Below, one piece after another: positions 1 to 49,176 of a stretch of DNA of 64,000 nucleotides. Position 1 is the stretch's first letter, and every line of letters starts with the position of its first letter. The stretch lies in the IMG/VR virus record IMGVR_UViG_2623621010_000003; one strand, 5' to 3'. The notes beneath the pieces were generated by a model, which was not told where the DNA came from, made no database searches, and saw only the letters and a list, made by a program, of their open reading frames with translations. The DNA comes from an uncultured virus (IMG/VR IMGVR_UViG_2623621010_000003). Taxonomy: Duplodnaviria; Heunggongvirae; Uroviricota; Caudoviricetes. The position numbers and the translations under genes were made by a program.

Positions 1-243
1 TTAATTCAGTTTTGAAACATAAATCTCGTAATGTGGATTTGTATCCTTATTTGAAATGACTTCATCTATTACGTATTTTTCAACCATTCCATCGGGCAAT
101 GAATGGTGAAGAAAATCCCCCTCTTCAACAGGTACCTCTATGTCTTTACTAGTAATCATTATTGACTGAACGATACAATATTTTAAAACCAACTCCTCTC
201 CTGTACCATTTTTTATTAATTTTAAATCTATTCTATTCATCAC
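1..243 (-). CDS. hypothetical protein (80 aa)
   Basis: ORF track; AGGAG-like RBS upstream; no recognised family. Confidence 0.55.
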   Translation of the reverse strand: MMNRIDLKLIKNGTGEELVLKYCIVQSIMITSKDIEVPVEEGDFLHHSLPDGMVEKYVIDEVISNKDTNPHYEIYVSKLN

Positions 244-578
244 TTTAGGTCTCCTTTAAGTGATTAATTTATTCTAGATAAATCATTATGATTATTAGCA
301 TTTTGACATTAGGCTGTAAAGAAGAACTCTTTTCAGCATTAACCGATATTGTTTCATTTTGTTTATTAAATTTTACTATTTGGTCTAATTATATAAATAC
401 TAGTTTGAAAGTATAATTTTGCTTTAGATCTTTAGGAATGACTGATTATTTATGTGACTTTTACTCAGTTTTTTACTTCAAAGTATGCTATGTGTTTTAT
501 AGTACAAATCCTATTTATTTACTCATAACGTCAAACTTTCAGAGATTCTCATGATTTCATAAGTGAATTCTAGAAAGT

Positions 579-653
579 TTACGCTCTTTTACTGTAGACC
601 ATAATAGATACAGACCTCTTACTGCCACGCTGCCTAGGTTTAAGTAATTTCAT
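579..653 (-). pseudogene. N-terminal remnant of a tyrosine integrase
   Basis: Reads MKLLKPRQRGSKRSVSIMVYSKRA*, colinear with the N-terminus of the 41835-42860 integrase (MKMPKPVKRG...GKRV) and on the same side of an att copy, in the same orientation. Confidence 0.45.
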
Positions 654-3082: not shown

Positions 3083-4495
3083 TTGAATACAGCAGTAAAT
3101 ACAGAAGATATTTCTTATAAGTTCATTAAAGACAGTTCAGATAAAATCGAAACGCCATTTGAAAATGATTTTTGGGGACGTGAAGCATTAGCAGATCGAT
3201 TAACAGACCATGTCTCACGTATTACTGTTGGAGCCACTATCGCCATTGATGCTGAATGGGGAGCTGGAAAATCTTGGTTTGTAAATAACTGGAAAGCGAA
3301 ACTAGAACAAAATGATTTTAAAGTTATTTATTTGAATGCATTTAATCAGGATTATATTGATGACCCTTTTCTAACTATATCAATGGAAATTGCGAATTGT
3401 CTCAAAACTGAAGAAGATGACCTTAGTACAGTTAAAGAAAAAATCGGTGACGCCTATAGAGCAATATTGCCTAATTTGCCAATGCTACTCTGGTATTTGA
3501 CAACATCATTAGCAGGTATGGGTGCAATTGCTAAACCCATTGCTGATATTATTGAAACTCTTAAAGATACTGGTAAATTAGGTGAAGAAGCAGGAAAACT
3601 ACTTAATGAAAAACTACAAGAGCATCTTTCTGCACAAGTTGAAAATTACGATAAAGAAAAGAAATCGTTAGAATATTTTAAAGAGGCTTTATCTGCTGTT
3701 ACATCTAAATTAGATACCCCTTTAGTATTTATTGTTGATGAACTTGATCGCTGTAAGCCAGAATTTGCAATTCGTTTAATTGAACGTATTAAGCATTTTT
3801 TTGATATTCCGAAAGTCGTATTCATTCTTGCTGTAAATAAGACTCAACTAGAAGAATCAATTAATAATTTTTATGGGTTTACAAACACTGCAAACTATTT
3901 AGAAAAATTTATAGATTTTTCTATAATGTTAAAAAGTAAAGACTTAGATGGTAATAGATACTCTGAAATTTTAAATAGCTATAATCATGATTTCCAATTA
4001 ACTTTAGATGACATCGAAATTCATACTTACATGAATTTATGCAAAATATACACACCTAACCCCCGACAACTAATACGTATTATTAACAAGTTTTCATTAT
4101 TGAAAGATAATCTAGATAATAGAAAAAAAACATTTCTTTTTTTATTTTTACTTTACTCTGAAATGAGATTACTTGATATATACAGTGAGCAACCTTTTAT
4201 TGATCACTTCTATGATCAACATCTTAAATTTCATGAAAAAAGATTTAAACTTTATTCAAGGGACCGTAGTAACCCTCGTAGCGAAGTTGGTAAGCTATGT
4301 GATTTCCTTGACTACCATGTTTACTCACTCAAGGGAAAATCATCTTTATTTGAATTATTTTTTTATTATATAGAGTATATTAAATCATCAAATAATGATT
4401 ATACAGAATGTAAACAATCTTATTACCCTACAGTTAATACTGAAAATGACTTGATTGATGAGTGGCATAAATATGTGCATATGATTGAGGGTTAA
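3083..4495 (+). CDS. KAP-family P-loop NTPase
   Basis: Walker A IAIDAEWGAGKS, Walker B VFIVDELDRCKP, YLEKFID motif; AT-rich. Confidence 0.88.
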   Translation: MNTAVNTEDISYKFIKDSSDKIETPFENDFWGREALADRLTDHVSRITVGATIAIDAEWGAGKSWFVNNWKAKLEQNDFKVIYLNAFNQDYIDDPFLTISMEIANCLKTEEDDLSTVKEKIGDAYRAILPNLPMLLWYLTTSLAGMGAIAKPIADIIETLKDTGKLGEEAGKLLNEKLQEHLSAQVENYDKEKKSLEYFKEALSAVTSKLDTPLVFIVDELDRCKPEFAIRLIERIKHFFDIPKVVFILAVNKTQLEESINNFYGFTNTANYLEKFIDFSIMLKSKDLDGNRYSEILNSYNHDFQLTLDDIEIHTYMNLCKIYTPNPRQLIRIINKFSLLKDNLDNRKKTFLFLFLLYSEMRLLDIYSEQPFIDHFYDQHLKFHEKRFKLYSRDRSNPRSEVGKLCDFLDYHVYSLKGKSSLFELFFYYIEYIKSSNNDYTECKQSYYPTVNTENDLIDEWHKYVHMIEG

Positions 4496-4521
4496 AAAAA
4501 GGGCTTTATGCCCTCTTTTTT
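4494..4521. terminator. bidirectional intrinsic terminator
   Basis: AAAAAAAGGGC-TTTAT-GCCCTCTTTTTT between convergent genes. Confidence 0.7.
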
Positions 4522-6049
4522 AAATATAATAACTCATGAGTTCACTATAAGACTTATAGTCCATTTTATATTTTAATAAGACCAATACTGTTTCTAAATT
4601 TTTATTAGCATGTAAATCATGAAATATTTGATCAACTTCATTTATATCATTTTCTAATTTTATAATTTGCTTTTTTTCTTCTTCAAGCATGCTTTTTAAT
4701 TTATGCAAAGAAGATTCTATAGAATTTAATAAATTATCACTAAATTTACTAGCATCTTCTTTAGGCTGATTCTCTATTTTTAATATCTCTGCATTTAAAT
4801 TATCTATAATTGTTTTTTTACCAATTATCAATTGATTATTTAATGTATAAATACTACTTATAGAGCCTTTAATTACATCCGCATTATAGCTTGTCATAAT
4901 ATCATTATATTTATACTCTTTTAAAAAACCATTAATTTGGTATTTCTTTTCTGGCATGTAGTTCGCACTAGATTTAACATAACCAACTTTTTCCAAATTA
5001 ATCAAAATATTATTATAGTCAGATAAACTCATATTTTTTCTAGTAAGATAAATTTCTCTGAAATAAACCATCCACACTGCATTACCCTGATATGCATTTT
5101 TAGAATATAAATATGCATTTTTTGATAGCGTATTAATTACATTTTCATATCTCTTATAATCTATTTCCATAAATTCAAAAAAACCATATTTTTCAAAATA
5201 TAATTTGTGCTTAACATCCCCCCTCATTGACATTCCATAGAAAAACAATGCTTCATATTCATATTGACTAAGTGCAGACTTAAACATGTACATATATTTA
5301 TTTTTCTTAGAATCTGAAATCCCTTGTAGAACATCCCCATCAAATTGATCAAATCCAGAATTTATAAAATCCATTATCTGAAAGCAAATATTATAAAATC
5401 CACCCCAATAAATTATAACACCATCAAGAAAATCATTTAGATACGATTCAGCATAGTTCAATTTATAATGCATTATTCCAGCTCTTAGTGCATCTTTACC
5501 ATTATATTCCTGAACTCCTATATTTAAGTCGTTATCTAATATTTTTGGCGAAAATTTTAAGTTTGATACAATGTCATTTTTGGAACGAAATAATTCAAAT
5601 AGGACATTTTCAAAGTTTTGTATTGTTATTTGTCTTTGTTGTACTTCCAATGTTATCTTTTGAGACTCAACAATTTCTTTTTGAATTTTAATATTTTCGC
5701 CTTCTAGCCTAGCAATTGCCTCTTGATGTCTTGCAGATTCCTGTTGCGCAAGAGCTGCTTTACTTAATTCCTCGCGAGTTTCTTTTAATTCTTTAATTTG
5801 TAATCGAACAGAATAAGTTAGCCAATAAAAAGCAAAAAGTGCAAAAATTGGATTAAGAATGCCACCAAAGAAATCTCCAAATGTTCCCCATTGTTCTAGA
5901 CTTTCTGATAAAGGCACTTGATTTGTAGCAATCGCCACATAAAACAAAGCAACTAATAGTATTAAATATTTGACCAATGATCTGTGAGAATTGATATCTC
6001 TATCAATTTTTTCTAAATCATCATTGTCTTTTTTATTCATTTGGTTCAT
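4520..6049 (-). CDS. putative phage abortive-infection protein (putAbiC-like) with N-terminal TMs
   Basis: WGTFGDFFGG.LNP TM motif, coiled coil, QNFENVLFEL, KY...FKSALSQYE..LFFY motifs. Confidence 0.7.
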   Translation of the reverse strand: MNQMNKKDNDDLEKIDRDINSHRSLVKYLILLVALFYVAIATNQVPLSESLEQWGTFGDFFGGILNPIFALFAFYWLTYSVRLQIKELKETREELSKAALAQQESARHQEAIARLEGENIKIQKEIVESQKITLEVQQRQITIQNFENVLFELFRSKNDIVSNLKFSPKILDNDLNIGVQEYNGKDALRAGIMHYKLNYAESYLNDFLDGVIIYWGGFYNICFQIMDFINSGFDQFDGDVLQGISDSKKNKYMYMFKSALSQYEYEALFFYGMSMRGDVKHKLYFEKYGFFEFMEIDYKRYENVINTLSKNAYLYSKNAYQGNAVWMVYFREIYLTRKNMSLSDYNNILINLEKVGYVKSSANYMPEKKYQINGFLKEYKYNDIMTSYNADVIKGSISSIYTLNNQLIIGKKTIIDNLNAEILKIENQPKEDASKFSDNLLNSIESSLHKLKSMLEEEKKQIIKLENDINEVDQIFHDLHANKNLETVLVLLKYKMDYKSYSELMSYYI

Positions 6050-6254: not shown

Positions 6255-7283
6255 TTATTTTTCATTCAAAAGCTTGCCACGAACTTCAGCATAAGACTTA
6301 AACGTAATGAGCTTCTGTCCTGCCCATTCATTGACTTGATCTGCTATACGGTGCTGAAGCGGAATAATTTCTGAATTCCAATGCACCTGTTCTGCTTCCG
6401 TAATTGACCCAAAACCACCCGTATTATTAGGAATAATGCCAAGTAACTGAGGTGGAGTACGCATAGCTGCCAAAATGTCATCCCGCGTAATAGACTTAAT
6501 ATGTGCAAACTCATCCTTTGCTGCCACTTCCGAAACGGGTATCAACTTAATACCATCGGGCTTACCACTCGGTGAGTACAAAAACAGATTTCTAAAATTC
6601 CCTGGTCCTTTACTGTCTTTAAGTGCCTGACGTAAATTGTTTACATCTTCTTCATTCTGCTGTGGATCGGTCAGGTACAAAATAAATCCAGCATGTGAAC
6701 CATTGTTGTAGTACTTACGACGGAACAAAGTCGCAGACTCATTTAGCCAAGCAGACTGCAAAGCCGCCAAATATTCAGGTGTGCCATACACTTCCTGATT
6801 AATATCGCACTCACGTACCTGAAAAACTGAATCTCGCTCAAAATGGTGGTACTTCCAGTTTTCCGTAATCATTAAAAACTCTTTCGGGTCTTGCTTACGT
6901 CGCATGTATTTGGCTAAAGGCGTAGTGACCTGCACCACTTGGTTAGAGCGACTTTTTATGGCTTCCACATAGCCCATACCAAACACCAAAAAGTCCATAA
7001 CCAATTGTTCAAAGGCTTTGGAAGACATCAACTTATTCGGCTTAAATGCAGAAACCAACTGATTACGTTTATAAATAATGGCGGTCGACAAATAAGGCGT
7101 AGAACGGAAAGACTTTGCCAAACCCTCTAAACTCACTGGTGGCTCATAGTAAGTACCATTCCAGTACACCTGAAACATACTCATGTAGTCATGCGTATTT
7201 AGAACAGGTTCAGGGTCACCAAAGGTAAAGGCTTGAATGGCATTATTTTGCGCCACAGCAGGCAAGTTTTGAGTTTCAGACAT
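6255..7283 (-). CDS. Q: portal protein (P2 gpQ-like)
   Basis: AFTFGDPEPVL, LNESATLFRRKYY.NGSHAGFI, KGPGNFRNLF. Confidence 0.95.
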   Translation of the reverse strand: MSETQNLPAVAQNNAIQAFTFGDPEPVLNTHDYMSMFQVYWNGTYYEPPVSLEGLAKSFRSTPYLSTAIIYKRNQLVSAFKPNKLMSSKAFEQLVMDFLVFGMGYVEAIKSRSNQVVQVTTPLAKYMRRKQDPKEFLMITENWKYHHFERDSVFQVRECDINQEVYGTPEYLAALQSAWLNESATLFRRKYYNNGSHAGFILYLTDPQQNEEDVNNLRQALKDSKGPGNFRNLFLYSPSGKPDGIKLIPVSEVAAKDEFAHIKSITRDDILAAMRTPPQLLGIIPNNTGGFGSITEAEQVHWNSEIIPLQHRIADQVNEWAGQKLITFKSYAEVRGKLLNEK

Positions 7284-9067
7284 TAGAATATTTCCATTGC
7301 AGCAGTATTGTGGACGTTACGCCCTTCCAGTGGTTCATTGGCAAAGACATGCATACACGCCCAAGCAAGGTCGGCATGCCCGACTTCCTCCGAACGTGTG
7401 GCTTCAAAAGTGAATTGACGACCTGAACCAGTCATGGTCTTTTTAATGGCCATAAAGCTTTGCGCGACATCGGTCCAGCCTGCATCAAACTCAAAACGCC
7501 CTTGATGCACCACATCCATAGCTTTGAGTACCAACATGGTTTTAACTTCGACCGAATAGCTAAAGGTGGTCAGTGCTGGGAAGAACTGGCGTACCAATTG
7601 GGCTACGCCTGTTCCCATGCCTGTAGTGTCTAAACCTATGTAGGTCACACGGTAGTTTTCACAGACTTTTTTGATGTAAGCCGCCTGAGCCTGAAAATCC
7701 ATGCCTTTGAATTGATGACGTTCCAGTAAGCGGAATTTTGGGTAATTGATGGATGGCGGTGCGATGACCACTAAGCCTGCGGTATCACCTGTTTCGGCAG
7801 GGTCATAACCGACCCATACTTCCTGATAGCCAAATGGACGCAGTGCCAAAGGTTTAAAGTCTCTGTCCCAGAGTACCCATGAGTCCACCATGCACGGTTG
7901 CATGACTGAAAGTGGAAAGACTGAATGCCCATCGTCCATGAACATACACATGAGCAAGTTGGCAAAACTTTCTGCCGAATACTCAAAGCGTAATTCATCA
8001 ATATCGAACAGGTCGCAGCCACCGCGTTCGGCATCTAAAATGGTGACAATCTGTCGCCAAATTTTGTCTTCACACAGTCGACCATCTTTTAAGGCTTCAT
8101 GGCTGACATCAATGTTTAGGCGTTTGTCTTTAGCTCTGCCTTTGTTAAAGATTTCCCCTGTCCAGAAGTTATAGGCTTCGTGGCTTTTTGAAGATGGTGT
8201 GGAGAAATAGGTTTTGCGCCAGCGTTTATGCATTGCCATACCAGAAGCAACTTTCTGTAAGGTCTGGAAGCCATGCACCCAAAAGTATTCATCGAAATAA
8301 AAATTGCCGTGGAAGCCCTGAGCAGTTTTGGCGTTGGTGCCTAAGAATATAAGTTCTGAAGGTGGACCTTCTTCAAAGTTAAGGACGATTGGATCGCCTT
8401 GTAAATCCAGATCAATCGACTCCGCGGCAAAGGACTTAATGTAGGATTTGAAAACATGTGCCTGTGCTTTGGAGGCAGAAAGGAAAATCTGATTGCCCCC
8501 GCCTGTAATGGCATCGACAAAGGCTTCACGTCCGAAGTAATAGGTTGCCCCAATTTGGCGGCTTTTTAAGATATTGCGTGAACGCTGATTTTTAGCTTTG
8601 AACCATGTGCGTTGGTAGTCGAATAGCCCTTCTTCAAAATCTGCCTGAACCTTTTCAATCATTGCCTGAGTAATGAGATTACGCTTCGGCATCTTCTTCG
8701 GTTTGGCATTACGGTTTTGAATTTTTGGGTTAATGTCGGCTTCATTACCGCCATCGGTCAGGTATTTTTCGCGTCGTGCGTATTTGTCTTTTTGACGTTC
8801 TAACAGGTCGATTTCTTTAAAATCGCCTGGTGTTTTTTTCTCTAGCAAATACAAGGTACACAGACGGGCTTCGAGTGCCTGAGCTGCAATTCCTTCAGGT
8901 GCGTCTTTGTCCCATTCATCACGGGCTTTCCATGAGTGAACGGTCTTTTCATTTTCCTGAAGGTATTCAGCAATACTGCTAATACGCCAACCCATCCAGT
9001 AAAGGAACTTTGCCTTTACTCGGTTATCAAATGTTAGCTCGAAGCGTTCGGTGTCAAATGTATTCAT
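7283..9067 (-). CDS. P: terminase ATPase subunit (gpP)
   Basis: ILKSRQIGAT, YFDEYFW, GYDP, GHADLAWA; start at MNTFDTE. Confidence 0.95.
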   Translation of the reverse strand: MNTFDTERFELTFDNRVKAKFLYWMGWRISSIAEYLQENEKTVHSWKARDEWDKDAPEGIAAQALEARLCTLYLLEKKTPGDFKEIDLLERQKDKYARREKYLTDGGNEADINPKIQNRNAKPKKMPKRNLITQAMIEKVQADFEEGLFDYQRTWFKAKNQRSRNILKSRQIGATYYFGREAFVDAITGGGNQIFLSASKAQAHVFKSYIKSFAAESIDLDLQGDPIVLNFEEGPPSELIFLGTNAKTAQGFHGNFYFDEYFWVHGFQTLQKVASGMAMHKRWRKTYFSTPSSKSHEAYNFWTGEIFNKGRAKDKRLNIDVSHEALKDGRLCEDKIWRQIVTILDAERGGCDLFDIDELRFEYSAESFANLLMCMFMDDGHSVFPLSVMQPCMVDSWVLWDRDFKPLALRPFGYQEVWVGYDPAETGDTAGLVVIAPPSINYPKFRLLERHQFKGMDFQAQAAYIKKVCENYRVTYIGLDTTGMGTGVAQLVRQFFPALTTFSYSVEVKTMLVLKAMDVVHQGRFEFDAGWTDVAQSFMAIKKTMTGSGRQFTFEATRSEEVGHADLAWACMHVFANEPLEGRNVHNTAAMEIF

Positions 9068-9111
9068 GCGCCAATTAAAGCAACGCACTTTACACAATGC
9101 TTGATTTGGCT

Positions 9112-9134
9112 TTTGTAGCATCCCCTCTTACAAA
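9112..9134. promoter_or_regulatory. Ogr-type late-promoter box (P side)
   Basis: TTTGTAGCATCCCCTCTTACAAA (TGT-N13-ACA dyad), 5 copies in this prophage. Confidence 0.75.
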
Positions 9135-9244
9135 GAAGGTTTATTTAAAAGTTTGGATAACGTTGGCAATAGCTGTAAGGATTGGAGCAAGTTTGGATTT
9201 GTAAAACAAATTAAAACATTGAATTATATTAAATAAAAAGTTAA

Positions 9245-9272
9245 ATTACGTATAACGTGCATTATGTTAATG
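9245..9272 (+). other. XerC|XerD (pdif-like) site
   Basis: ATTACGTATAA-CGTGCA-TTATGTTAATG matches the 11-6-11 dif consensus. Confidence 0.85.
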
Positions 9273-9275
9273 CTT

Positions 9276-9686
9276 CTAATTGGCTTTGAAACTATATCCA
9301 AAATTTATGTGATCTAGATCTGTTTCATCAGTAAATAAAATCCCTAATACATATTTAAATCTTTCATATCTATCATAAATAGTTGGAATTCCCCAATCTT
9401 CATCTACGGTATATAATTCATGTTCTTTCAAAATAGAAAAATTATCCCAATCAGAAACAATCATTAATTGTGTGATCCTCATAACACCCCATAAAACATT
9501 TCGAGGAATCGGTGTATTCTTTGGATAATGAAAGTTGATACTTAATAAATCTTTTTCTAATTTCCAGTATTCAAGATCAGACCAAACACAGTAATCGAGC
9601 CACAAACCTATAAATGAATTAGGGTCATATATTCCTTCACCTAAAAAAGTTATATTTCTATTAAAGTTTTCAAACACAGTATTCAA
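9276..9686 (-). CDS. Imm41-like polymorphic-toxin immunity protein (moron)
   Basis: F.RN...YD..SFIG...W...EYWKLE motif pattern recalled for Imm41; AT-rich; no toxin nearby. Confidence 0.6.
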   Translation of the reverse strand: MNTVFENFNRNITFLGEGIYDPNSFIGLWLDYCVWSDLEYWKLEKDLLSINFHYPKNTPIPRNVLWGVMRITQLMIVSDWDNFSILKEHELYTVDEDWGIPTIYDRYERFKYVLGILFTDETDLDHINFGYSFKAN

Positions 9687-9739
9687 TCTCCAATTCTATT
9701 CATATTTACATCATATGTGCCATTTCGTGTAGTTTTACT

Positions 9740-9767
9740 ATTTAGCATAATGGCGATTATACGAAAT
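9740..9767 (-). other. XerD|XerC (pdif-like) site, inverted relative to 9245
   Basis: ATTTAGCATAA-TGGCGA-TTATACGAAAT. Confidence 0.87.
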
Positions 9768-9887
9768 TTTTAAGCTGCCTAAATTGTTATCGTTTTCAAA
9801 TTAACATTATTGATCAAATCACATATCTCTTCCAAAGAAATAAAGGTTTGATTCCTCAATTTTGACACATTCAAATCATACTTCCTT

Positions 9888-9910
9888 TTTGTAGCATCCC
9901 CTCTTACAAA
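9888..9910. promoter_or_regulatory. Ogr-type late-promoter box (O side)
   Basis: Identical to 9112-9134. Confidence 0.75.
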
Positions 9911-9988
9911 TCCAATTTATTTACTAATCCCGTCGGACTTTTAATGATGCTCATTATTTGATGAGTAAATTCCAGAACGGTTAAACAC

Positions 9989-10810
9989 ATGACAAATAAA
10001 TCTAAGTTCTTTCGTGTTGCAGTCGAAGGAGAAACTATTGATAAGCGCGTGATTGAACGCTCTTGGATTGAACAAGCTGCAAAAAACTACAACCAGTCTG
10101 TATATGGCGCTCGTATTTGGGTTGAACACTTACGTGGTGTCATGCCCGATTCTTCCTTCCGTGCTTATGGTGATGTACTTGCTGCAAAAGCCGAAGAAGT
10201 CGACATTAACGGTGAAAAGAAACTGGCATTGTTTGCACAAATTGATGCAACTGCCGACTTGGTCGAAATGAACAAAAAGCGTCAGAAGATTTTCACCAGT
10301 ATTGAAATTGACCCGAACTTCCAAGGCAAAGGCGAAGCCTATTTGGTGGGCTTGGCTGTGACCGATTCTCCTGCCTCTATTGGCACTGAAAAATTGAGCT
10401 TTTCCAGTATGGTTGCCAAATTTGGTGAAAATGCTGAAAAGAATGTCTTCTCCATTGCTGAAGAAACCCACATTGAATTTGAAGATGACAGCAAAGGCTT
10501 ATTTGCAGGAATGGTTCAGAAGTTCAGTGACCTGTTCTCCCCGCAAATTGAACAACAAGGTGCCGAAGCCAAACTGAACTTTACTGAAGTCAAAAAAGTA
10601 CTCGAGCAAATTGCAGAAACCTTTGGCAAGCAAAGTACGGCTTTCTCAAAAATGCAGCAGGAACTGAATGAGCTGCAAACCAAGTACAGCGAACTTGAGC
10701 AAAAGCACAATGCCCTTTCAGATTCATTCAATCATCAACCTGACCCAAATCATCACAAGCGACCTGAAAGCACTGGGCATTCGGGCAGTAATGCTGCTGT
10801 TGTTTATTAA
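9989..10810 (+). CDS. O: capsid scaffolding protein (gpO)
   Basis: KFFRVAVEGETID.R, YGARIWVEH, YLVGLAVTDSPASIGTE. Confidence 0.95.
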   Translation: MTNKSKFFRVAVEGETIDKRVIERSWIEQAAKNYNQSVYGARIWVEHLRGVMPDSSFRAYGDVLAAKAEEVDINGEKKLALFAQIDATADLVEMNKKRQKIFTSIEIDPNFQGKGEAYLVGLAVTDSPASIGTEKLSFSSMVAKFGENAEKNVFSIAEETHIEFEDDSKGLFAGMVQKFSDLFSPQIEQQGAEAKLNFTEVKKVLEQIAETFGKQSTAFSKMQQELNELQTKYSELEQKHNALSDSFNHQPDPNHHKRPESTGHSGSNAAVVY

Positions 10811-29557: not shown

Positions 29558-29580
29558 TTTGTAGCATCCCCTCTTACAAA
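29558..29580. promoter_or_regulatory. fifth Ogr-type box
   Basis: Identical to 9888-9910, not upstream of a known structural gene. Confidence 0.7.
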
Positions 29581-29698
29581 TTGAAGTCCGTGAAAAATGC
29601 TTCTTTCAAAAATAGACTCATCAGACAAAACAAAACCCCAAAGATTCAGAGTCTTTGAGGTTTCTGTATTCAATCCCTACACAACTAAGGATCAAATC

Positions 29699-29845
29699 AT
29701 GTCTGAAAGTATAGCATTAATCATCAAAAGTTTTGAGGTAATCATGGAAAAATATGGCTACTGGAAAGTTAGTATTCTCATTTTATTGTGCATGATCATC
29801 TGGCGATGTTCGTATATTATTGCAGCACTAAAATTATGGTTTTAA
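29699..29845 (+). CDS. small membrane peptide (48 aa; alternative start MEKYGYW)
   Basis: TAAGGA RBS; hydrophobic/cationic C-terminal half. Confidence 0.55.
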   Translation: MSESIALIIKSFEVIMEKYGYWKVSILILLCMIIWRCSYIIAALKLWF

Positions 29846-29902: not shown

Positions 29903-30877
29903 TTACTTTTTAGCAACATCTGCAACAGACTTAGCAGCTTCTGAACTAGCTTTAAGAATTTCTGATGCTGCTTTTAAATTATTTAATAAAGCCTCATTGA
30001 TATGAAAATCTTCATTTTCAACTCTTGTAACACCAAAATACTTCGATATAAGTGATAACTTTACTTCTTCAATCTTTTCGTCTGATACACCTTTTAAATA
30101 AGGTCCCATAGCTTTTAACTCTAAAGCTGTAGACTGCTCAATCTGTGCCATCTTTCTATGTTGAGATGAACGCTTAATAAAATAAGTACAGAGCGCAACA
30201 ACAATACCAGTCATAAAAATTTTGGAGACAATAAAAAAAATTATTGACTGTGTATTCATAAGTGTTTCTAATGACTGATATTTTTCAAACGACGCATATG
30301 TAAAAATACCTGCACCAATTAGAACTGCAATAAAGAGGAGTTCAAAAAAAATTGCTAAATTAAAATTATTCTTACTGCTCGTGTTATAAATATTATAAGC
30401 CTCTAAATTTCCTTCAAAAATTTGGGCTGCTGTATAGTTTTCAATTTTACTGCGTAACACACTCACTTCATCATCAATCATCTTCTTAGCTGACATTTTT
30501 TGACTAATAAAGTTTGATGCAAAAATTTTATATTCATCTAGCCAACCCATAACATTAGTAGGTATCCATTTATCTCCATAAATAAATTTTCCATCTTTAC
30601 CAAACTTTAATTTTCTAATATGGTAAACGGATAATGAATCTAATTTCTCAGAGATATATTGATCTAATACTTCATCTATTAAATTTTTATTATCTTGCAA
30701 AAAGCTATAAAAGTCTTGGAGAGTTCTCGCACAACTATCCATTCCTGACTTGAACTCAATTTTATCATTTTCAGAATAGTCATCAGGAAAAATAACTTTT
30801 CCATCAAGAAATAACTGATAAAAACCTTTAAATTCAGTTAAAATTTGGTCCATCCTAATTTGAGAATTTAATGTCAT
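29903..30877 (-). CDS. coiled-coil + 2-TM hypothetical protein (paralog A)
   Basis: C-terminal YFIKRS..HR..A...T.LEL.A..PY...KYFG shared with 31773 and 32792. Confidence 0.75.
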   Translation of the reverse strand: MTLNSQIRMDQILTEFKGFYQLFLDGKVIFPDDYSENDKIEFKSGMDSCARTLQDFYSFLQDNKNLIDEVLDQYISEKLDSLSVYHIRKLKFGKDGKFIYGDKWIPTNVMGWLDEYKIFASNFISQKMSAKKMIDDEVSVLRSKIENYTAAQIFEGNLEAYNIYNTSSKNNFNLAIFFELLFIAVLIGAGIFTYASFEKYQSLETLMNTQSIIFFIVSKIFMTGIVVALCTYFIKRSSQHRKMAQIEQSTALELKAMGPYLKGVSDEKIEEVKLSLISKYFGVTRVENEDFHINEALLNNLKAASEILKASSEAAKSVADVAKK

Positions 30878-31025
30878 CTTAATTCTTAAACCCTAATAAA
30901 GTCGTTTCCAAAGATTTCTCTAATTTATTTAGCATCCACTAAGCCCTTCTCTTGCCCATTAATTTATCTTATTCCACCCAAAACAAATGCAAATACATTA
31001 TGCAAAAGGTAATGTATCAACCCTT

Positions 31026-31769
31026 TTAAGCAGCTTCGTCTAAAGCATTTCTTTTACTTTTATCTTTGTTAATTTTTTCTAGTTTTAAAAAATTCTGTGC
31101 AGCTTCTGGCTTTAAAAAGCCCCAGAGCACATACAAAGAGAATATGAAAACCGCGATAAAAAAGAGAAACACTACAGTGAATACACTACTTGAAATTGCT
31201 GGAGCCTGTTCTTTGTAAAGGACAGGAAGAAGTATCATTAAAATTAAAGGGCTTGCCCCAAATATATTAATAAGAATGTACCAAAATGTACCCCATAAAG
31301 AATCAGACTTTAATTTCTTCTCAGTATACTTAGGCTTTAATTTGTATAGATTTGTTTCTTCATCCTTTTCAAGATAATCTTTTCCTATTTTAAACAGCTT
31401 CACCGCTTTTACTCGGTCACGACACGACATAATAAGTGATAGCAAATCTAAATCTTTATTTTTGATATTTAGATAATTCTCAAGCTTTGAAACCTTAACG
31501 TGGTACTCCAACTCACTAGCATATTCTTTTAAAAACTCATCTTCTAAAAGCTTTTCATGCTCAGTAATTTGTTCGTTACGCTTTTTTCTTCTGTGGTCTG
31601 AATAGTCTCTTATACCTGCGACCACGCCAGATTTAGCAATGAAATAAGTAGCTGCCACCAACGCGGCAATAACAATCAAAGCATAGATAAGTTCTAGGCC
31701 ATAATTTTGTTCTAAAATTTTTAGGAATACTTGGGTCGCATCTAAGTCACCATTCAAATTAACCGCCAT
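31026..31769 (-). CDS. 3-TM hypothetical membrane protein
   Basis: ORF track; N-terminal and two C-terminal hydrophobic segments. Confidence 0.7.
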   Translation of the reverse strand: MAVNLNGDLDATQVFLKILEQNYGLELIYALIVIAALVAATYFIAKSGVVAGIRDYSDHRRKKRNEQITEHEKLLEDEFLKEYASELEYHVKVSKLENYLNIKNKDLDLLSLIMSCRDRVKAVKLFKIGKDYLEKDEETNLYKLKPKYTEKKLKSDSLWGTFWYILINIFGASPLILMILLPVLYKEQAPAISSSVFTVVFLFFIAVFIFSLYVLWGFLKPEAAQNFLKLEKINKDKSKRNALDEAA

Positions 31770-31772
31770 ACT

Positions 31773-32735
31773 CTACCCCTTCGCCTTCAACACATCAGTC
31801 GCAGCTTTCACCATTTCCGTTGTGCTTTTCATTTGGTCAGAGATCAGGTTACTCATGTCCTTATGAGTTGCGCCATCTATTTCACGGCCAAAATATTTCA
31901 ATGCGAGTTCTTTACGTACTGAAGCAGCTTCTGAAGTTGGAATACTTTCCATGAAACTTGGGTAGGCTTGTAATTCTACTTGAGTTTGGTAGTTCTGGTC
32001 GGCAAGACGTTGATAGTGAGAAGATTGTTTTAAAAAATAGGTGATTAAAGTAATACCGACTACAATTATTGAAGCCTTAAGAACCCAAAATTCAATATCA
32101 CCTAGAAAATCTGGAACTAATAACTTTTTGGCAAAAAAAGTACCTAATGAAATCGTGACAGTGAGCCCAATTGCCCAATAAAAATATGTTCTATATCCCT
32201 TTTCTAAATCACGATATTTTTGAACCGCATTATTATAAATACTTTCAGTTTTTGCATTATCAGCAATATTTCTTAATCGCATATAATGCTCTATATTAGA
32301 TTTTACCTCATTTGATCCTTTTTCTATTTCATTGACAATAACATCAATTGTGTTTTTTATACTTTTCAAATAGTCTTGATGAGCAATACTTAATAAAAAT
32401 TCTCTAATATTATCCAAAAATGATAATAAATTTCTAAAACCATCTTCAGGGAAATCCATATTATTCTCCAACCTAAAAATGGAATTTAGAAATCCTCGAT
32501 ACTCTACCTCCCAATATTTCTTAAAATTTTTCGCAGAGAATAGATTACTTTCTGTGAGAGAGATTATTTCTTCAAATCTCTCTACAATTAATTCAGCTAA
32601 AGCTTCTGAGGTTTTATAGTTACTATCTTTTATATTGACTTTTTTTCTGAATACCTCTAAAGCATTTCTAAAACCAACTATTATCAATTCTTCATCTGCA
32701 CTACTATGAACATTAGGATTTCCAAAATCACTCAC
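31773..32735 (-). CDS. coiled-coil + 2-TM hypothetical protein (paralog B)
   Basis: YFLKQS.HYQRLAD..YQT..EL.A.P.FME...LALKYFG. Confidence 0.75.
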   Translation of the reverse strand: MSDFGNPNVHSSADEELIIVGFRNALEVFRKKVNIKDSNYKTSEALAELIVERFEEIISLTESNLFSAKNFKKYWEVEYRGFLNSIFRLENNMDFPEDGFRNLLSFLDNIREFLLSIAHQDYLKSIKNTIDVIVNEIEKGSNEVKSNIEHYMRLRNIADNAKTESIYNNAVQKYRDLEKGYRTYFYWAIGLTVTISLGTFFAKKLLVPDFLGDIEFWVLKASIIVVGITLITYFLKQSSHYQRLADQNYQTQVELQAYPSFMESIPTSEAASVRKELALKYFGREIDGATHKDMSNLISDQMKSTTEMVKAATDVLKAKG

Positions 32736-32791
32736 CCCAAAACCCTCTCAAAAATTTATAAAAATCTAAAACCAAATCTATTTAAAACCAA

Positions 32792-33847
32792 TCAAGCCGC
32801 ATCTTTCGGAGCTTTATCCACCTTCGGCACTTCCACCTTTGGCGTCAAATCCTTAACAGCTTTTATAAAGTCAGTATTCGCCTTAATGTTCTCATGCATA
32901 AGGTTTTCACCGCCCGTATAGCTTTCATGGTGGATGCCATTCCCAAAGTACTTATAAGCAAGGTCAAAGCGAATTTTTTCTTTCATTTCATCAGGCATAC
33001 CTTCCATATAGCGTGGAAGTGCATCAAGTTCTTTTGCTGTGCGGTAAGCATCATCAGCTAAACGACGGTTCATAAATGAACGCTTTAAAAGGAATGCTGC
33101 AAGTGTTGAGGATAAAATAAGTATCGAAATTTTCTGCACATAAAATGTCGGTGTATGATTGCCATAGAATTGCTCAGCAAACTTAAACTTAAATATTGCT
33201 GTATCAATCTCTGCATACCAACCGAAAAAATAAAGAAATAGAAATGCTAGTGCTATGTAAAATGCGATCTCATAACGTCTTGCTAACTTTTTGAATTTTT
33301 CAGAATCATCTTCAAATATTTCATGTACTTTCTTATTTTTTAAGTCATCAGAGATAATATCAACCTCATGAATTTTATTCAAAAGTTGTATTTGATCTCT
33401 TTTAAGTTTTTCTATTAGATTTTCTGCATCTATCCTATACAATTCAAAATCTTTAACACTTTTCTCTTTTAATAAAAAATTGGTAACATCATATAGATTA
33501 GAATCGATTTCACTAATTATTTCTGACCATTTTTCACTTTCATAGTCCTTTCTTTTTATAATTTTATCTGCTTCATTAATAATACTTTCATTATTATTAA
33601 TTTTAACTAAAATAAATTTTGAAGAAAAATAATCAATTACTTCTATTTTATTTATAATTTCTATTGCATTATTAAAATTTACGAGTATTTCATCCTTAAA
33701 ATCTCTAAGTGCTTTTAAATCATCGGGATGTGGTACATTTAGATTTTTTAGTAATTCAACCATAATTAACGAGAACTTGTGCAATTGCTTATCAAGTTTT
33801 TCTTTACATTCAATAATTGTTAAATCAATTTTCTGGTCTACACCCAC
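32792..33847 (-). CDS. coiled-coil + 2-TM hypothetical protein (paralog C)
   Basis: FLLKRS...RRLADDAYRT..EL.A.P.YME...LAYKYFG. Confidence 0.75.
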   Translation of the reverse strand: MGVDQKIDLTIIECKEKLDKQLHKFSLIMVELLKNLNVPHPDDLKALRDFKDEILVNFNNAIEIINKIEVIDYFSSKFILVKINNNESIINEADKIIKRKDYESEKWSEIISEIDSNLYDVTNFLLKEKSVKDFELYRIDAENLIEKLKRDQIQLLNKIHEVDIISDDLKNKKVHEIFEDDSEKFKKLARRYEIAFYIALAFLFLYFFGWYAEIDTAIFKFKFAEQFYGNHTPTFYVQKISILILSSTLAAFLLKRSFMNRRLADDAYRTAKELDALPRYMEGMPDEMKEKIRFDLAYKYFGNGIHHESYTGGENLMHENIKANTDFIKAVKDLTPKVEVPKVDKAPKDAA

Positions 33848-33885
33848 CCCAAAACCCTCTCAAAACTATAAATATTTAAAAAATT

Positions 33886-34680
33886 TCAATCTTCAAAAGC
33901 ATCATCAACTTCTGGATAATTTTTAACTAAATGATCACGAACAGACTTAGACGTACTAAACACATCACCCGTCCAGTTATCTCTTAATTCAATTACACGC
34001 TCAGACTTAAAAGTTCGTTCACCTTCTGCCGTATCTGCGACAAAATACCAGCGATTATTTCCCCACTCTTTTTGCACACCAGTTACATCAATGAATCTTG
34101 TAGTTACTTTCCCAAATCTATCTTTATAATCAAGCTCATACCGATATAAAGCCGATAAATCCACACCTGAACGTTTTTTAACTTCATGATGGAATTCATC
34201 TTCATCATTACTATCAAATTTTGGAATTTCATTCCAAGGCTGATAACTTGGACTACTTGGTGAAACATAAAGTGTCGGCTCTTTATAACTTGGAATCTCA
34301 GGTACTTTTTCAGGTACGCTTTCAGGAATATTTTGAGGTTTTGCTTGCACACTTACCTTATTATTTTTATCAATATTAAATTTTTTCTTGCTTCCATATC
34401 TAAGAAAAAAGAACGCAGCAACCATACCAATCAAATATAGAATCGCATCTACATCACTTTCTTTTGGCATAGTTTTCTTAGGTATTACTATACAAAGCAT
34501 AATGAATATGATTAATGTAATTACAAACCAATATAAGAGAATATTTCCTCGTGATAGTTGCTGATGATTAATAGTCAAAAAGAAATGTTTTGGTTTAATT
34601 AGATAATAAAATAAAGAAAAAATAAAAATAGAAAAAACACCCACAATAAAGTCAGCTAGATATAGCACTTTCCCACCCAA
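33886..34680 (-). CDS. membrane protein with C-terminal WYL-like domain
   Basis: 3 N-terminal TMs; L.Y.D..G..T.R.I...ERTFK.ER.I pattern. Confidence 0.6.
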   Translation of the reverse strand: MGGKVLYLADFIVGVFSIFIFSLFYYLIKPKHFFLTINHQQLSRGNILLYWFVITLIIFIMLCIVIPKKTMPKESDVDAILYLIGMVAAFFFLRYGSKKKFNIDKNNKVSVQAKPQNIPESVPEKVPEIPSYKEPTLYVSPSSPSYQPWNEIPKFDSNDEDEFHHEVKKRSGVDLSALYRYELDYKDRFGKVTTRFIDVTGVQKEWGNNRWYFVADTAEGERTFKSERVIELRDNWTGDVFSTSKSVRDHLVKNYPEVDDAFED

Positions 34681-36469: not shown

Positions 36470-37939
36470 ATGACTTTACTTCAATTAATTAAGGACGATA
36501 AAAATATTCATGGTCAGAATGGCTATATAAATGCTATACGAAATAAAATTAATCTAGAACCAATCTCTGACATTACAGATGATCAAGGCAACCAATATGT
36601 TGATTTAGTGATGGAAGGCGGGACTGTCTGGGGGTTAGCTTTAATAGGCTATACTTACACATTAGAACAAGCTGGCATTCGATTTCTAAACTTAGCAGGG
36701 ACTTCAGCAGGATCAATAAATGCTATGATTCTCGCTTCATTAGGACAATCCTCAGATCCCAAAAGCGAAAAATTATTAAATATTTTTGACCAAATGGATT
36801 TAAAAAGTTTTGTAGATGGCGGTACTCTAGCAAATGAACTAACCAAAGATATTGAACAAAAAGATAACCCTTTTTTTGCGATGCTTCCAAAAATTATAGG
36901 ACTACTCACGCTTGGTAAATTCGGTAAAAATAAACTAGGCATCAATCCAGGAGAAACTTTTGAAAGATGGTTAGAAAAGCAATTGAGTGATAATGGTGTT
37001 ACAACTACAGCTCATCTCTTTAGAAAAATGAAAAATGAAAAATTACAAATAAGAAAGAATGCGAGAAGAATCAATCCTATCGAGGATCTCGAGCGCTTCA
37101 AGAATAATTTTCAAACCAATGAATTAGCTATTATTGCATCAGATATATCTACCGAAAGTAAAATTACATTTCCACAGATGGGATATTTATATTGGGAAGA
37201 TCCATTAAGTATTAATCCTAAAATATTTGTTAGAGCATCAATGTCTATTCCAGTATTTTTTGAGCCTGTCAGATTAGGAAATTTACCAAAAAAACGTAAA
37301 GAATATTGGAGAGCATTGACTGGTTATGATGGGGAACTACCTGATGTGGCTTACCTTGTTGATGGTGGCGTGATTTCAAACTTTCCTATTGATATTTTCC
37401 ATTCACATGACTGTATACCTTTGTGCCCAACATTTGGCGCGAAGCTAGGAATAGATAGAGATAAGCCATCTAAGATCGAAAGCATATCCGACTTTGCCTC
37501 TGCAATATTTGAAACGCTGAGACATAACAATGACTTCACTTTTTTATTTAAGAATGAAGATTACAAACTTTTAATTGCGTATATAGATACTTCACAAAAA
37601 TATTTAGCTAAAGATTCGACGGAAAATAAAAATTTCATAGAGAAAATAGTAGATAAATTCAAAAAAGAAGAATCTGATACCTTTAGTGCTCTTGATTTCA
37701 ATATGTCTAATCAAAAGAAAGCAGCATTATTTGCCTTAGGTGCAAAAGCTGCTTATGAGTTTATTTGTGGAAATGATAAATACCATGAAAACAAATATTT
37801 AACACCAATTCCTTCTGGATCAATTCCTCCATTTGATTGGGAATCATATAAAGATTTACGTAATCAATTGATTGTAGTTGATGCTGAAGAATACAAAGCA
37901 AGGAAACAAAGAATAAAAAGATTCTCTTTATTACCCTAA
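36470..37939 (+). CDS. patatin-like phospholipase
   Basis: LVMEGG..WG, GTSAG nucleophile, RASMSIP.FF, DGG catalytic motif. Confidence 0.88.
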   Translation: MTLLQLIKDDKNIHGQNGYINAIRNKINLEPISDITDDQGNQYVDLVMEGGTVWGLALIGYTYTLEQAGIRFLNLAGTSAGSINAMILASLGQSSDPKSEKLLNIFDQMDLKSFVDGGTLANELTKDIEQKDNPFFAMLPKIIGLLTLGKFGKNKLGINPGETFERWLEKQLSDNGVTTTAHLFRKMKNEKLQIRKNARRINPIEDLERFKNNFQTNELAIIASDISTESKITFPQMGYLYWEDPLSINPKIFVRASMSIPVFFEPVRLGNLPKKRKEYWRALTGYDGELPDVAYLVDGGVISNFPIDIFHSHDCIPLCPTFGAKLGIDRDKPSKIESISDFASAIFETLRHNNDFTFLFKNEDYKLLIAYIDTSQKYLAKDSTENKNFIEKIVDKFKKEESDTFSALDFNMSNQKKAALFALGAKAAYEFICGNDKYHENKYLTPIPSGSIPPFDWESYKDLRNQLIVVDAEEYKARKQRIKRFSLLP

Positions 37940-42860: not shown

Positions 42861-43004
42861 TGGTGCAATTCTTGGTGCATTTCTGGGGAAGTTTATTAAT
42901 TATTTCTACTATTTTTTAAAATATCTAGGCAAAACAACAAAACTCAAACCATAAAAAAAGGGCTTACAAGTCGTTGAAATTGCTTGTAAACCCTTATTTT
43001 GTCT

Positions 43005-43049
43005 TGGTAGGCATATCCAGACTCGAACTGGAGACCTCTACGATGTCAA
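43005..43049 (-). repeat. att core = 3' half of tRNA-Val(GAC), junction between the two prophages
   Basis: Identical to 862-906; no tRNA 5' half adjacent. Confidence 0.92.
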
Positions 43050-47340: not shown

Positions 47341-47406
47341 AAGATAAAGTGCCCCACGGCGCTTTATTTATGCAAAATTCTGAACCAACTTCTTAATGAT
47401 TGGTCG
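47341..47406 (-). pseudogene. duplicated higA 3' end plus terminator
   Basis: Diverged copy of 46645-46711, encodes RPIIKKLVQNFA*. Confidence 0.7.
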
Positions 47407-47463
47407 AACCCAATCCATGATGGTTTCAAATAAGATATTGATGCTCAATGTAAAATTTCAAGA

Positions 47464-47491
47464 ATTTTGCAGAAGGTGTATTATGTTGATT
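47464..47491 (+). other. XerC|XerD (pdif-like) site
   Basis: ATTTTGCAGAA-GGTGTA-TTATGTTGATT. Confidence 0.75.
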
Positions 47492-47520
47492 TTAGGAATT
47501 ATTAATTTTAAAAATTACTT

Positions 47521-48030
47521 ATGCTCAAAGCTTTTATGCTAGTTGTCGTGTTAATTTCAACTTCTATCAATAATCTATCGCATGCAGAGACCAATACATT
47601 GAAGGAAAATATGATATTAGAACCATTTATATTTGAAATTGGTTCTAATTTTTCAGATATTCAAACTAAATTCAGCTTAGAAGCAAAGACTTCAGGAGTA
47701 AATTTCATTAAAGAATCAAACTGGTACAGATTAAAAACACCTGTAGGATTTATTTCCCTTCAAGAGTGGAAAGGTAAACTTCATTCTATTGCTTATGAAA
47801 TTGATATAGATGATGTAGAAACAAAAAAGAAATTAATAAACTATCTATTTGAAAAATATAAAAATAATTTTGAATGGGTAGAACGGGTTGATAATGGGTT
47901 TTATATTTCATATGAATCATCTAATGATTCTATCCAAGGAATCCATGCTTATTCATTAGGAACAACTATTTCTTTTACTAGTAATGAAATTAGAAAAGCT
48001 GAAACAAAGGTTCGATTTCCAAATCTTTAA
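47521..48030 (+). CDS. exported hypothetical protein (cassette 1)
   Basis: Signal-peptide-like N-terminus ending SHA; AT-rich; between pdif sites. Confidence 0.65.
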   Translation: MLKAFMLVVVLISTSINNLSHAETNTLKENMILEPFIFEIGSNFSDIQTKFSLEAKTSGVNFIKESNWYRLKTPVGFISLQEWKGKLHSIAYEIDIDDVETKKKLINYLFEKYKNNFEWVERVDNGFYISYESSNDSIQGIHAYSLGTTISFTSNEIRKAETKVRFPNL

Positions 48031-48045
48031 TTTGTGAAACCAGTT

Positions 48046-48073
48046 ATTTAACCTAATGGAGCTTATTCGAAAC
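48046..48073 (-). other. XerD|XerC (pdif-like) site
   Basis: ATTTAACCTAA-TGGAGC-TTATTCGAAAC. Confidence 0.72.
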
Positions 48074-48223
48074 TGGCATCATTTCGAGGGCTTTTTTTCA
48101 TTAACCCACTACACACCTACGGCGATATGAACATATGCAAATGATCATAAAGAAGCCATGATAGTGCGCTGAACCCATTATGGATTCATATAAGATATTG
48201 ATGCTTAATGTAAAAGTTTAAGA

Positions 48224-48251
48224 ATTTTGCATATGGTGTATTATGTTGATT
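48224..48251 (+). other. XerC|XerD (pdif-like) site
   Basis: ATTTTGCATAT-GGTGTA-TTATGTTGATT. Confidence 0.75.
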
Positions 48252-48334
48252 TTAGAGAAGTTTAAGAGTCAATACTAATGTAATTTATTAATCCTTTATT
48301 TTTAGGCTAATCAAGATATTCGAGTTATGTAGAT

Positions 48335-48631
48335 ATGAATGATGTAAGAGATGGGTTGTTGCTCTTGGAAATGGATGAAAATAGTCTAGAAAAATATACA
48401 TACTCCTTGAAAGATATGAGGAAAGTAATCATTTATGCGCTTTCTGAAAGCGTATCAAACTATTGGCCTGAATTAGCTTTAAACTGGCTTCAAAAAAAAC
48501 CTGAATATCTTGATAGTGATGTTTTATATTGGATTGATAATCTAATTAAGGATAAAAATAATTATTCTCAGAAGGTTAGACATCTGGCTACAAAGATACG
48601 TAAGAATTTTTTGGAAATACCTAGTACATAA
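48335..48631 (+). CDS. small helical hypothetical protein (cassette 2)
   Basis: ORF between pdif sites; YWPELALNWL motif. Confidence 0.65.
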   Translation: MNDVRDGLLLLEMDENSLEKYTYSLKDMRKVIIYALSESVSNYWPELALNWLQKKPEYLDSDVLYWIDNLIKDKNNYSQKVRHLATKIRKNFLEIPST

Positions 48632-48652
48632 TTATGAGTGATGTATAGGCTC

Positions 48653-48689
48653 CTTTAACATAATGGGCAATATACGTATTATGTTGGTT
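48653..48689. other. XerD|XerC site overlapped by a second XerD arm
   Basis: CTTTAACATAA-TGGGCA-ATATACGTATT then TTATGTTGGTT at 48679-48689. Confidence 0.62.
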
Positions 48690-48714
48690 AAGCCCCATTT
48701 AAAGAACAAAAATC

Positions 48715-49140: not shown

Positions 49141-49148
49141 GAATATCA

Positions 49149-49176
49149 ATTCAACCTGATGGCGATTATTCTAAAT
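49149..49176 (-). other. XerD|XerC (pdif-like) site
   Basis: ATTCAACCTGA-TGGCGA-TTATTCTAAAT; same spacer as 9751-9756. Confidence 0.65.

Follow-up and report, generated by a model that had tools for sequence, protein, structure and literature searches.

A 523-bp unit bounded by two inverted XerC/D (pdif) sites lies in the terminase-scaffold (P-O) interval of a P2-like prophage, where it encloses a single minus-strand gene of the Imm41 immunity family and retains the final 20 codons of a gene for an Ntox21 rRNase toxin, the latter being what is new here. Taking the explanation as a whole, we think it on balance probable that this element is an Acinetobacter D-type dif module which carries an orphan antitoxin and travels as a passenger (moron) of the prophage. 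The window, meaning the whole stretch of DNA analysed, is 64,000 nucleotides (64 kb) long, and orphan is used here for an Imm41 gene with no toxin partner within it. The host of the prophage would be Acinetobacter, since the named Imm41 homologs and the nearest prophages come from that genus. The features of the interval are as follows.

7283 to 9067, minus strand: terminase ATPase subunit (P2 gpP-like), the left anchor, by Pfam Terminase_6N/6C/Terminase_5.
9112 to 9134, unstranded: late-promoter activator box, copy 1 (TGT-N13-ACA), before the terminase gene, by position.
9141 to 9196, minus strand: truncated 3' end (about 16 codons) of a gene for a 46-aa hydrophobic peptide, intact in sister phages, by comparison with L001.
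9191 to 9244, unstranded: plasmid-backbone-type flank outside the left dif site, resembling the stretch downstream of repM-orfX in Rep_3 plasmids.
9245 to 9272, plus strand: left pdif site (C|D), with C arm ATTACGTATAA, spacer CGTGCA and D arm TTATGTTAATG.
9276 to 9677, minus strand: orphan Imm41 immunity gene (PF15592), 133 aa, GTG start.
9683 to 9745, minus strand: Ntox21 toxin gene remnant, the last 20 codons and stop, by similarity to the C-terminus of the G120 toxin.
9740 to 9767, minus strand: right pdif site (D|C), made up of ATTTCGTATAA, the spacer TCGCCA (read C to D) and TTATGCTAAAT.
9768 to 9870, unstranded: right flank, absent from sister phages, by sequence comparison.
9888 to 9910, unstranded: late-promoter activator box, copy 2, before the scaffold gene, by pattern.
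9989 to 10810, plus strand: capsid scaffolding protein (P2 gpO-like), the right anchor, by Pfam Phage_GPO (E 5.3e-91).

Both 28-bp sites are built as 11-6-11 and lie inverted with their XerD arms inside, giving the C|D-gene-D|C polarity, and the pair of near-consensus sites around one gene, that an earlier note on this DNA had described. The left site departs from the pdif consensus at 3 of 22 positions and the right site at 1 of 22, with the ATAA-N6-TTAT core intact in both (9245 and 9740). Scoring used arms that we take to be the consensus and that agree with the plasmid sites in loci L019-L023. The pdif table in the available text of PMC10486904 agrees with these arms as well. Across 30 block shuffles of the window no pdif site with three or fewer mismatches arose, and the initial pattern search gave 5 matches in the window compared to 0 in 100 shuffles. 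At 4972-4999, inside the AbiC-like gene of the portal-side cargo, an XerD arm without mismatches stands beside an XerC arm with 4, a combination in the chance range for the window. The Imm41 stop codon (9276-9278) is close to the left site, as had been observed, at a distance of 3 bases from the D arm rather than the 4 first given, and at the other end the inner 6 bases of the right site (9740-9745) double as the toxin codons Leu-Asn. The cargo has a GC content of 0.29, against 0.46 and 0.43 for the flanking genes.

The cargo protein, previously called Imm41-like, matched Pfam PF15592 well above the curated cut-off (E 6.6e-21; 74.9 bits against 26.9) and has 20 homologs at 52-99% identity, with S21, F22 and W32 conserved in a 33-row alignment. 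As 133 aa is the length of most homologs, the GTG at 9677 is the likelier start, in place of the TTG at 9686 that had been suggested. An AlphaFold model (mean pLDDT 89) was mostly helical. A PDB sequence search gave no match and Foldseek nothing at E 0.001 or better, while VIA-align reached a best Z of 5.8 with generic helical bundles, by which a known fold is neither identified nor excluded; the structure searches returned no solved Imm41, and the solved E. cloacae immunity protein was absent from their matches. PHROGs held no family for the gene. In viral contigs a single-protein query found no Imm41 relatives and an alignment query one distant locus (L071, 31%) without dif sites. The Imm41 family was matched in 6 of 247 genomes of the genus, 4 of them above the cut-off, and these four comprise two module copies, a CDI locus and a different Imm41 in G133, so that three of the four sit in dif modules.

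The toxin remnant ahead of this gene is identical to the C-terminus of the G120 toxin at 17 of 20 residues (E 1.8e-7) and supplies the GGAG ribosome-binding motif for Imm41. It contains neither the D-x-D-x-H nor the K catalytic residues; in the E. cloacae CdiA tip, which cleaves 16S rRNA, these are D203, D205, H207 and K214 according to the available text of PMC9086364. As the remnant begins downstream of the equivalent motif, toxicity is impossible, and in one module copy a stop codon falls within it. The Ntox21 profile matched 4 of the 247 genomes, with five matches in all, two of which are inside the module directly upstream of Imm41 (G024 and G125). Of these Acinetobacter genomes only one showed the whole domain and 3 others gave partial matches, and the toxin threat may therefore be rare.

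Intact partners were found at two loci. At L067 (genome G120) an ORF of 669 aa, in which a haemagglutinin repeat and a VENN motif accompany an Ntox21 domain (E 2.3e-29), lies in a CDI-type array immediately upstream of an Imm41 that is 50% identical to the window gene, and at L069 an Rhs-like ORF with Ntox21 (E 1.5e-32), whose DPxG we take to be an Rhs-like motif, lies upstream of a 54%-identical Imm41. These are the nearest intact cognate immunity proteins, at only 50-54% identity. The Ntox21 tip matched PDB 4ntq_A weakly (E 0.0014). Homologs of Imm41 stand directly downstream of Ntox21, Ntox29 or ART toxins at L067, L069 and L071, an arrangement repeated by the remnant in the module, and the available text of PMC3482391 lists Imm41 as an Ntox21 neighbour in polymorphic toxin systems. 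The search for a cognate toxin upstream of homologs elsewhere, which the earlier note had recommended, thus ended at Ntox21 of CDI and Rhs type, and with it the donor and the likely target of the antitoxin are identified. Several other Ntox21 proteins of 114-140 aa (P0048-P0055, P0058, P0062, P0064 and P0066) have an apparent N-terminal signal peptide and no CDI/Rhs body, and are possibly secreted toxins of small size.

Relative to the toxin stop the cut is 20 codons upstream, at the point where the toxin word TTAAAT coincides with the end of the XerD arm. Of three native-type toxin ends compared, those in plasmid L019 and in L069 have TTAAAT at this junction and that in G120 has CTTAAC; upstream of it, identity falls to 5-6 of 22, and TTAAAT occupies 15 of 2846 positions in such DNA. 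We infer from this one junction, which is not a rule, that the module was made when a pdif site joined a toxin locus across a 6-base overlap. Xer strand exchange takes place in the spacer, and for that reason microhomology accounts for this junction better than normal Xer chemistry does.

An Imm41 protein search matched 3 of the 247 genus genomes and 3 metagenome loci. Among these, G024, G125 and L068 each contain a unit that is likewise 523 bp long; between the sites it is 95% identical to that of the window and in the 60-bp flanks only 22-37%, identity ending at the sites. A unit of constant length in unrelated flanks is a mobile D-type dif module, and the identity of the element as a pdif module, as well as the mobility claimed for the cassette, are thereby borne out. 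As G024 and L068 share flanks, the copies represent two independent loci besides the window, both chromosomal, and their spacers differ. The exact 523-bp module was absent from 72,556 plasmid records, and the only Acinetobacter plasmid record with the gene was pYH12138-1, in which a 68%-identical copy starts at a C|D site of a pdif array, in a larger module. The G125 copy occupies the following slot, its neighbours having been named by reading translations.

G125:C2, about 73700 to 74250 (L329-L334): chromosomal slot in the interval between a nucleosidase-like and a rutR-like gene.

Six relatives compared at this position differed in content: G127, G146 and G209 have other cargo between two dif-like sites, G011 an insert and one site, G178 an insert without a site, and G090 is empty. 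The kinds of cargo seen at the position are Imm41, a 121-aa protein of unknown kind, a 300-aa sensor-like gene and DUF4238. Judged by these alternating contents, the slot shows swappable D-module behaviour.

Further dif-bounded cargo was seen in passing. On a 12.3-kb contig of G133 (L113, G133:C6:1-12338) there are 19 dif-like positions, and most modules enclose a single small gene; among 11 cargo proteins that were scanned there is one Imm41 and one Imm44, most are without family and several are of immunity size, and one module has a stop codon inside the XerD arm. This contig is a candidate poly-immunity dif array. Plasmid L021 carries in a D module a gene of SMI1/KNR4, an immunity superfamily. 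A SMI1/KNR4 dif module is called functionally unknown in the available text of PMC12907356. In a 72.9-kb viral contig, 2.4 kb with lipase-like and dehydrogenase-like genes (L230:2501-4903) lie between inverted dif-like sites with the spacers CGCGTA and TCGCCA, possibly another phage-borne dif module.

The placement of the module between P2-type terminase and GpO scaffold genes was confirmed by Pfam, and terminase homologs align from the ATG at 9067. The window has five copies of a 23-bp box (at 9112, 9888, 15769, 21587 and 29558), 100 shuffles giving 0; its copies precede the terminase, scaffold, baseplate and sheath genes, with the fifth at 29558. P2 has four late promoters with TGT-N12-ACA in the available text of PMC3931495, an Ogr/Delta activator gene is present at 28805, and from its position the box is taken to act as the late-promoter activator site.

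The P-O interval measures 140-147 bp in six near outgroups (86-95% terminase identity), with one box copy in each of the three outgroups compared in detail. In four sisters (at least 98% terminase identity) it measures 609, 609, 1094 and 1236 bp, contains 2-3 boxes and has small hydrophobic-peptide genes as cargo. Among 79 viral loci only 6 had an interval above 400 bp, and it measured 147-213 bp in 28 of 30 genus loci, numbers that count loci and not independent phages (L001=L024=L072=L116, L002=L025=L073=L124, L026=L117, L027=L118). The size comparison left out L008 (wrong interval) and L018 (without terminase), and L181 has no scaffold gene. No dif-like site with five or fewer mismatches was found in the P-O interval of the 79 viral loci, the 30 genus loci or the four sisters, and the sister intervals contain no Imm41. 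The gene is accordingly not part of an invariant core, and the different genes between conserved dif arms that the earlier note had looked for at this position were not found, in a sample with few members of the clade. As cargo in the sisters varies without dif sites, the slot is variable and is not defined by such sites. A strict dif pattern matched at least 113 loci in viral contigs; among the matches listed, 5 had more than one site, one was similar to the window (at siphovirus lysis genes) and none was at a P2 P-O interval.

In the sisters (L001:4765-6000, L002:4907-6000, L026 and L027) the P-O cargo consists of tandem arrays of two to five genes for 43-60 aa hydrophobic peptides, with repeated late-activator boxes at the borders. 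In the window, a small gene of similar kind comes after the fifth box (29558), at 29597-29845. It may be at these boxes that cargo is joined in by recombination.

On its left side the window follows L001 at 95% over the first 129 bp of the interval and then breaks off within the hydrophobic-peptide gene, whose intact homolog in L001 matches phrog_23357, a family with no assigned function. The adjoining plasmid-type flank is 79% identical to L020 over 85 bp and 78% identical to L023. None of 2000 shuffles of the 56 bases outside the left site reached the score for L020, L021 or L023, and 1625 of 2000 reached that for L022, which is thus at chance level. In contigs from separate runs the match starts at 9191, and the sister allele parts from the window at 9193 (run X5), so that phage and plasmid sequence share 3-8 bases at their join, which lies outside the dif site and in the middle of a phage gene. 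Plasmid backbones are described in the available text of PMC13141974 as C modules flanking D modules, and a single D module as unable to excise without a cointegrate.

Identity to the sister phages resumes at 9871. The right flank (9768-9870) had no convincing match in plasmids, the 247 genus genomes, viral contigs or the other loci compared: matches of 21-44 bases in 21 of the 247 genomes were at chance level, and there was one 19-base match to an unrelated phage. The capture account consequently covers only the left junction. Illegitimate recombination events occur in transformable Acinetobacter. The module probably entered by such a capture of a plasmid piece, and not by Xer action at a phage site, because the join lies outside the dif site and truncates a phage gene, where Xer would cut inside the site. 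Xer entry into a native phage dif site was rejected on the same grounds, about 54 bp of plasmid backbone lying outside the site.

The proposed course of events begins with the module being cut from an Ntox21-Imm41 locus, by which the toxin died and the antidote kept a ribosome-binding site, as the remnant records. The 523-bp unit moves between replicons as a D module, to judge from the copies compared, with host XerC/D presumably providing cointegration and resolution as the literature describes for such modules. This phage clade had by then duplicated its late-activator box, opening an expandable slot between terminase and scaffold, as the outgroup and sister intervals indicate. We regard these three steps as close to certain. 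Next, and quite likely, a piece of a Rep_3 plasmid comprising the module and about 54 bp of backbone would have joined the slot by short-homology illegitimate recombination, a capture that would have replaced most of the resident small-peptide genes. The arrangement would then have been inherited by, or have recombined among, related phages. At least half of the module words were present in 9 of 24 listed runs, RNA runs containing only 0.04-0.10 of the words, and two runs from two studies among the four compared (X3 and X6, neither flagged as a possible source) cover 8300-10700 in one contig without gaps. X3 differs at 9 positions in 2401, all in the terminase gene, and X6 at 77, at least 35 of them in the terminase gene at 8333-8969, with 0.84 of the sampled module words present; the pattern fits inheritance or recent spread among related phages. 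Finally, Imm41 expressed in the lysogen may neutralise the 16S-rRNase Ntox21 tips delivered by the CDI/Rhs systems of neighbours. Protection of the lysogen is plausible, and we give this last step an even chance. Orphan cdiI genes are thought to be protective against foreign toxins in the available texts of PMC3482391 and PMC9086364.

The alternative that survives best, which we consider possible without favouring it, is that the module is a neutral passenger, captured by chance, poorly expressed and not protective, which persists since the slot tolerates inserts. A scan for sigma-70-like promoters returned 2 sites where 6.7 were expected, which is not above chance. The rarity of the cognate toxin in the genus sample, the varied inserts of 0.5-1.1 kb that the sisters tolerate and the junk-like stop in the toxin remnant of one copy all agree with it. 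Against this, the Imm41 frame is intact in all four module copies and its pN/pS is 0.28-0.42 relative to the three other copies, below 0.5 in each case, at about 20 changes per pair, which suggests purifying selection that is only moderate. The retention of module words in X6 in spite of its terminase differences fits recent spread, and the predominance of dif modules among the over-cut-off Imm41 genes of the genus (three of four) also counts against a neutral passenger.

Unlikely, in our judgement, is a live Xer exchange slot, in which a plasmid piece with two pdif sites was captured once and D modules have since been swapped by XerC/D, for instance during circular phage replication, Imm41 being the current module. 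Both window sites keep the ATAA-N6-TTAT core, which the available text of PMC11705084 links to catalysis; the equivalent chromosomal slot has different cargo between dif-like sites by genome; module copies differ in their spacers; and sites resembling the right one occur in 438 plasmid records, 245 of them at 95-99%. Against it, in a sample that is thin for this clade (four sisters), neither the 79 viral nor the 30 genus loci have a dif-like site in the interval, X3 and X6 carry the same module, and the sole viral match to the right flank is an unrelated phage.

The earlier note had further proposed that the right site could recombine with one at 49149 in a neighbouring siphovirus, which has five dif-like sites at 47464-49176, and that the two phages draw on a common cassette pool. 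The spacers of 9740 and 49149 are indeed identical. The 49149 site is degenerate, with 5 mismatches and a D arm that starts TCAG instead of TTAT, and a site diverging in the ATAA-N6-TTAT motif failed to support catalysis in the available text of PMC11705084, which also reports (T/C)CGCCA spacers from plasmids, a class to which the 245 closely matching plasmid records bear witness. The two sites are in direct orientation 39.4 kb apart, recombination between them would delete these 39.4 kb, most of the P2-like prophage included, and the cargo genes of the two phages have no common sequence match and no common family. Direct trading of cassettes between the neighbouring prophages is thus very improbable and was rejected; what stands of the pool is a genus-wide stock of dif modules on plasmids and chromosomes, on which both phages draw, while a special link from phage to phage finds no support. 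About 100 bases before the two C|D sites of the siphovirus cassette array (47380-47500 and 48140-48260) look repeated, and a stretch resembling them flanks the G024 module copy (70% over 107 bp).

Weakest of all, and scarcely credible, is a role of the gene in phage defence or superinfection exclusion like that of P2 hotspot cargo, for which the anti-phage hotspots of P2-like phages (PMC9122126, available text) and the KAP NTPase and AbiC-like genes beside the portal of the same prophage might speak, since the published hotspot is gpA-gpQ and not P-O, the gene is linked by its toxin remnant to an Ntox21 locus and has no PHROG match.

The prophage itself lies between two partial tRNA-Val copies, one at about 860-907 and the other at about 43002-43049, and has its own tyrosine integrase. 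Both of these attachment repeats consist of the 3' half of tRNA-Val(GAC) only, and a tRNA scan of the window called no intact gene, which suggests a tandem stack of elements at this tRNA. Another copy of the Imm41 module, that of the L068 island, likewise adjoins tRNA-Val(GAC). Outside the left attachment repeat, window positions 1-581 repeat part of the P-O cargo of L001 (an 80-aa gene) at 77% identity, with a decayed scaffold-promoter region at 503-581, and are probably the remnant of an earlier P2-like prophage. Low-GC cargo is also present at 3083-6049, 29903-34680 and 36470-37939, with genes for a KAP NTPase and an AbiC-like protein (on the portal side), four to five membrane proteins that fall in no clear family, and a patatin-like phospholipase.

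Beyond the window, we tentatively propose that the dif-module system may act as a genus-wide library of stolen antitoxins, run by host XerC/D and carried between species by prophages, with captured sites still swappable. Modules would be minted from CDI/Rhs loci where an AT-rich word matches the end of the XerD arm, and stocked in plasmid arrays and chromosomal slots. The pointers to such a library are the window junction, the three of four genus Imm41 genes in dif modules and the G133 array, and if it exists it would be a recombinase-free counterpart of rAID-1, with the toxin scar as the first readable record of the birth of a dif module. In Acinetobacter, genes for resistance to carbapenems, macrolides and tetracyclines are spread by dif modules, and the available literature on these modules treats their movement rather than their first formation. 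From the scar the donor locus can be named and the cut placed to within 6 bases, so that the birth of modules could be tested on the hundreds already known. Interbacterial immunity would likewise be a function class for dif cargo that is often listed as unknown, and since a tailed prophage can carry an intact pdif pair, dif modules may also pass between species in phages, a route so far unrecognised.

Dif modules including chromosomal ones, the cited Proteus prophage case and the orphan immunity arrays of rAID-1 are already on record in the sources available. The literature covered, which included few subscription papers and no supplements, held nothing on immunity cargo in dif modules, on dif modules of P2-like phages or on module formation; supplementary module tables of PMC13141974, PMC9455709 and PMC6449649 could already list the window module. 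Membership of the IMEX elements was rejected, as the prophage has its own tyrosine integrase and tRNA-Val-type attachment repeats and the dif sites are internal.

Among known systems, the variable hotspots of P2-like phages (PMC9122126, available text) are alike in placing low-GC accessory DNA between conserved genes and in varying between close relatives. They differ in that the published one is gpA-gpQ with anti-phage systems, whereas the slot in the window is gpP-gpO with a box duplication, confined in this sample to one Acinetobacter clade. The Ntox21-Imm41 pairs, including E. cloacae CdiA-CT (4NTQ), resemble the module in that the remnant and the L067/L069 toxins are Ntox21, and differ in that the window Imm41 has left its cdi/rhs locus. 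The rAID-1 clusters of Bacteroidales, as described in the available text of 10.1101/471110, share orphan immunity genes to contact-dependent toxins, low GC, boundaries of repeated recombination-type sequences and a tie to an XerD-family recombinase. In rAID-1 a recombinase of its own lies 5' of at least two co-directional genes and protection has been shown, whereas the window has one gene between inverted host-type dif sites and is known from sequence alone. Membership of rAID-1 was rejected, as the module neighbours terminase and scaffold genes, has no XerD-like recombinase and contains a single immunity gene.

The closest likeness is to the D-type dif modules of Acinetobacter Rep_3/OrfX plasmids (available texts of PMC13141974, PMC11705084 and PMC6449649), with which the window shares inverted 28-bp 11-6-11 sites with XerD arms inside, plasmid-like spacer classes, one small accessory gene and recurrence in unrelated flanks. 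Chromosomal copies of dif modules are described in the available texts of PMC6449649 and PMC12907356, the former also citing an OXA-58 module in a prophage dif site of Proteus, and published cargo, in the sources available, comprises resistance, toxin-antitoxin, metal and metabolic genes. In contrast, the module in the window lies in a P2-like prophage between two late promoters, with no adjoining C module and no backbone beyond about 54 bp, and its cargo is a polymorphic-toxin immunity gene together with a scar of the donor locus.
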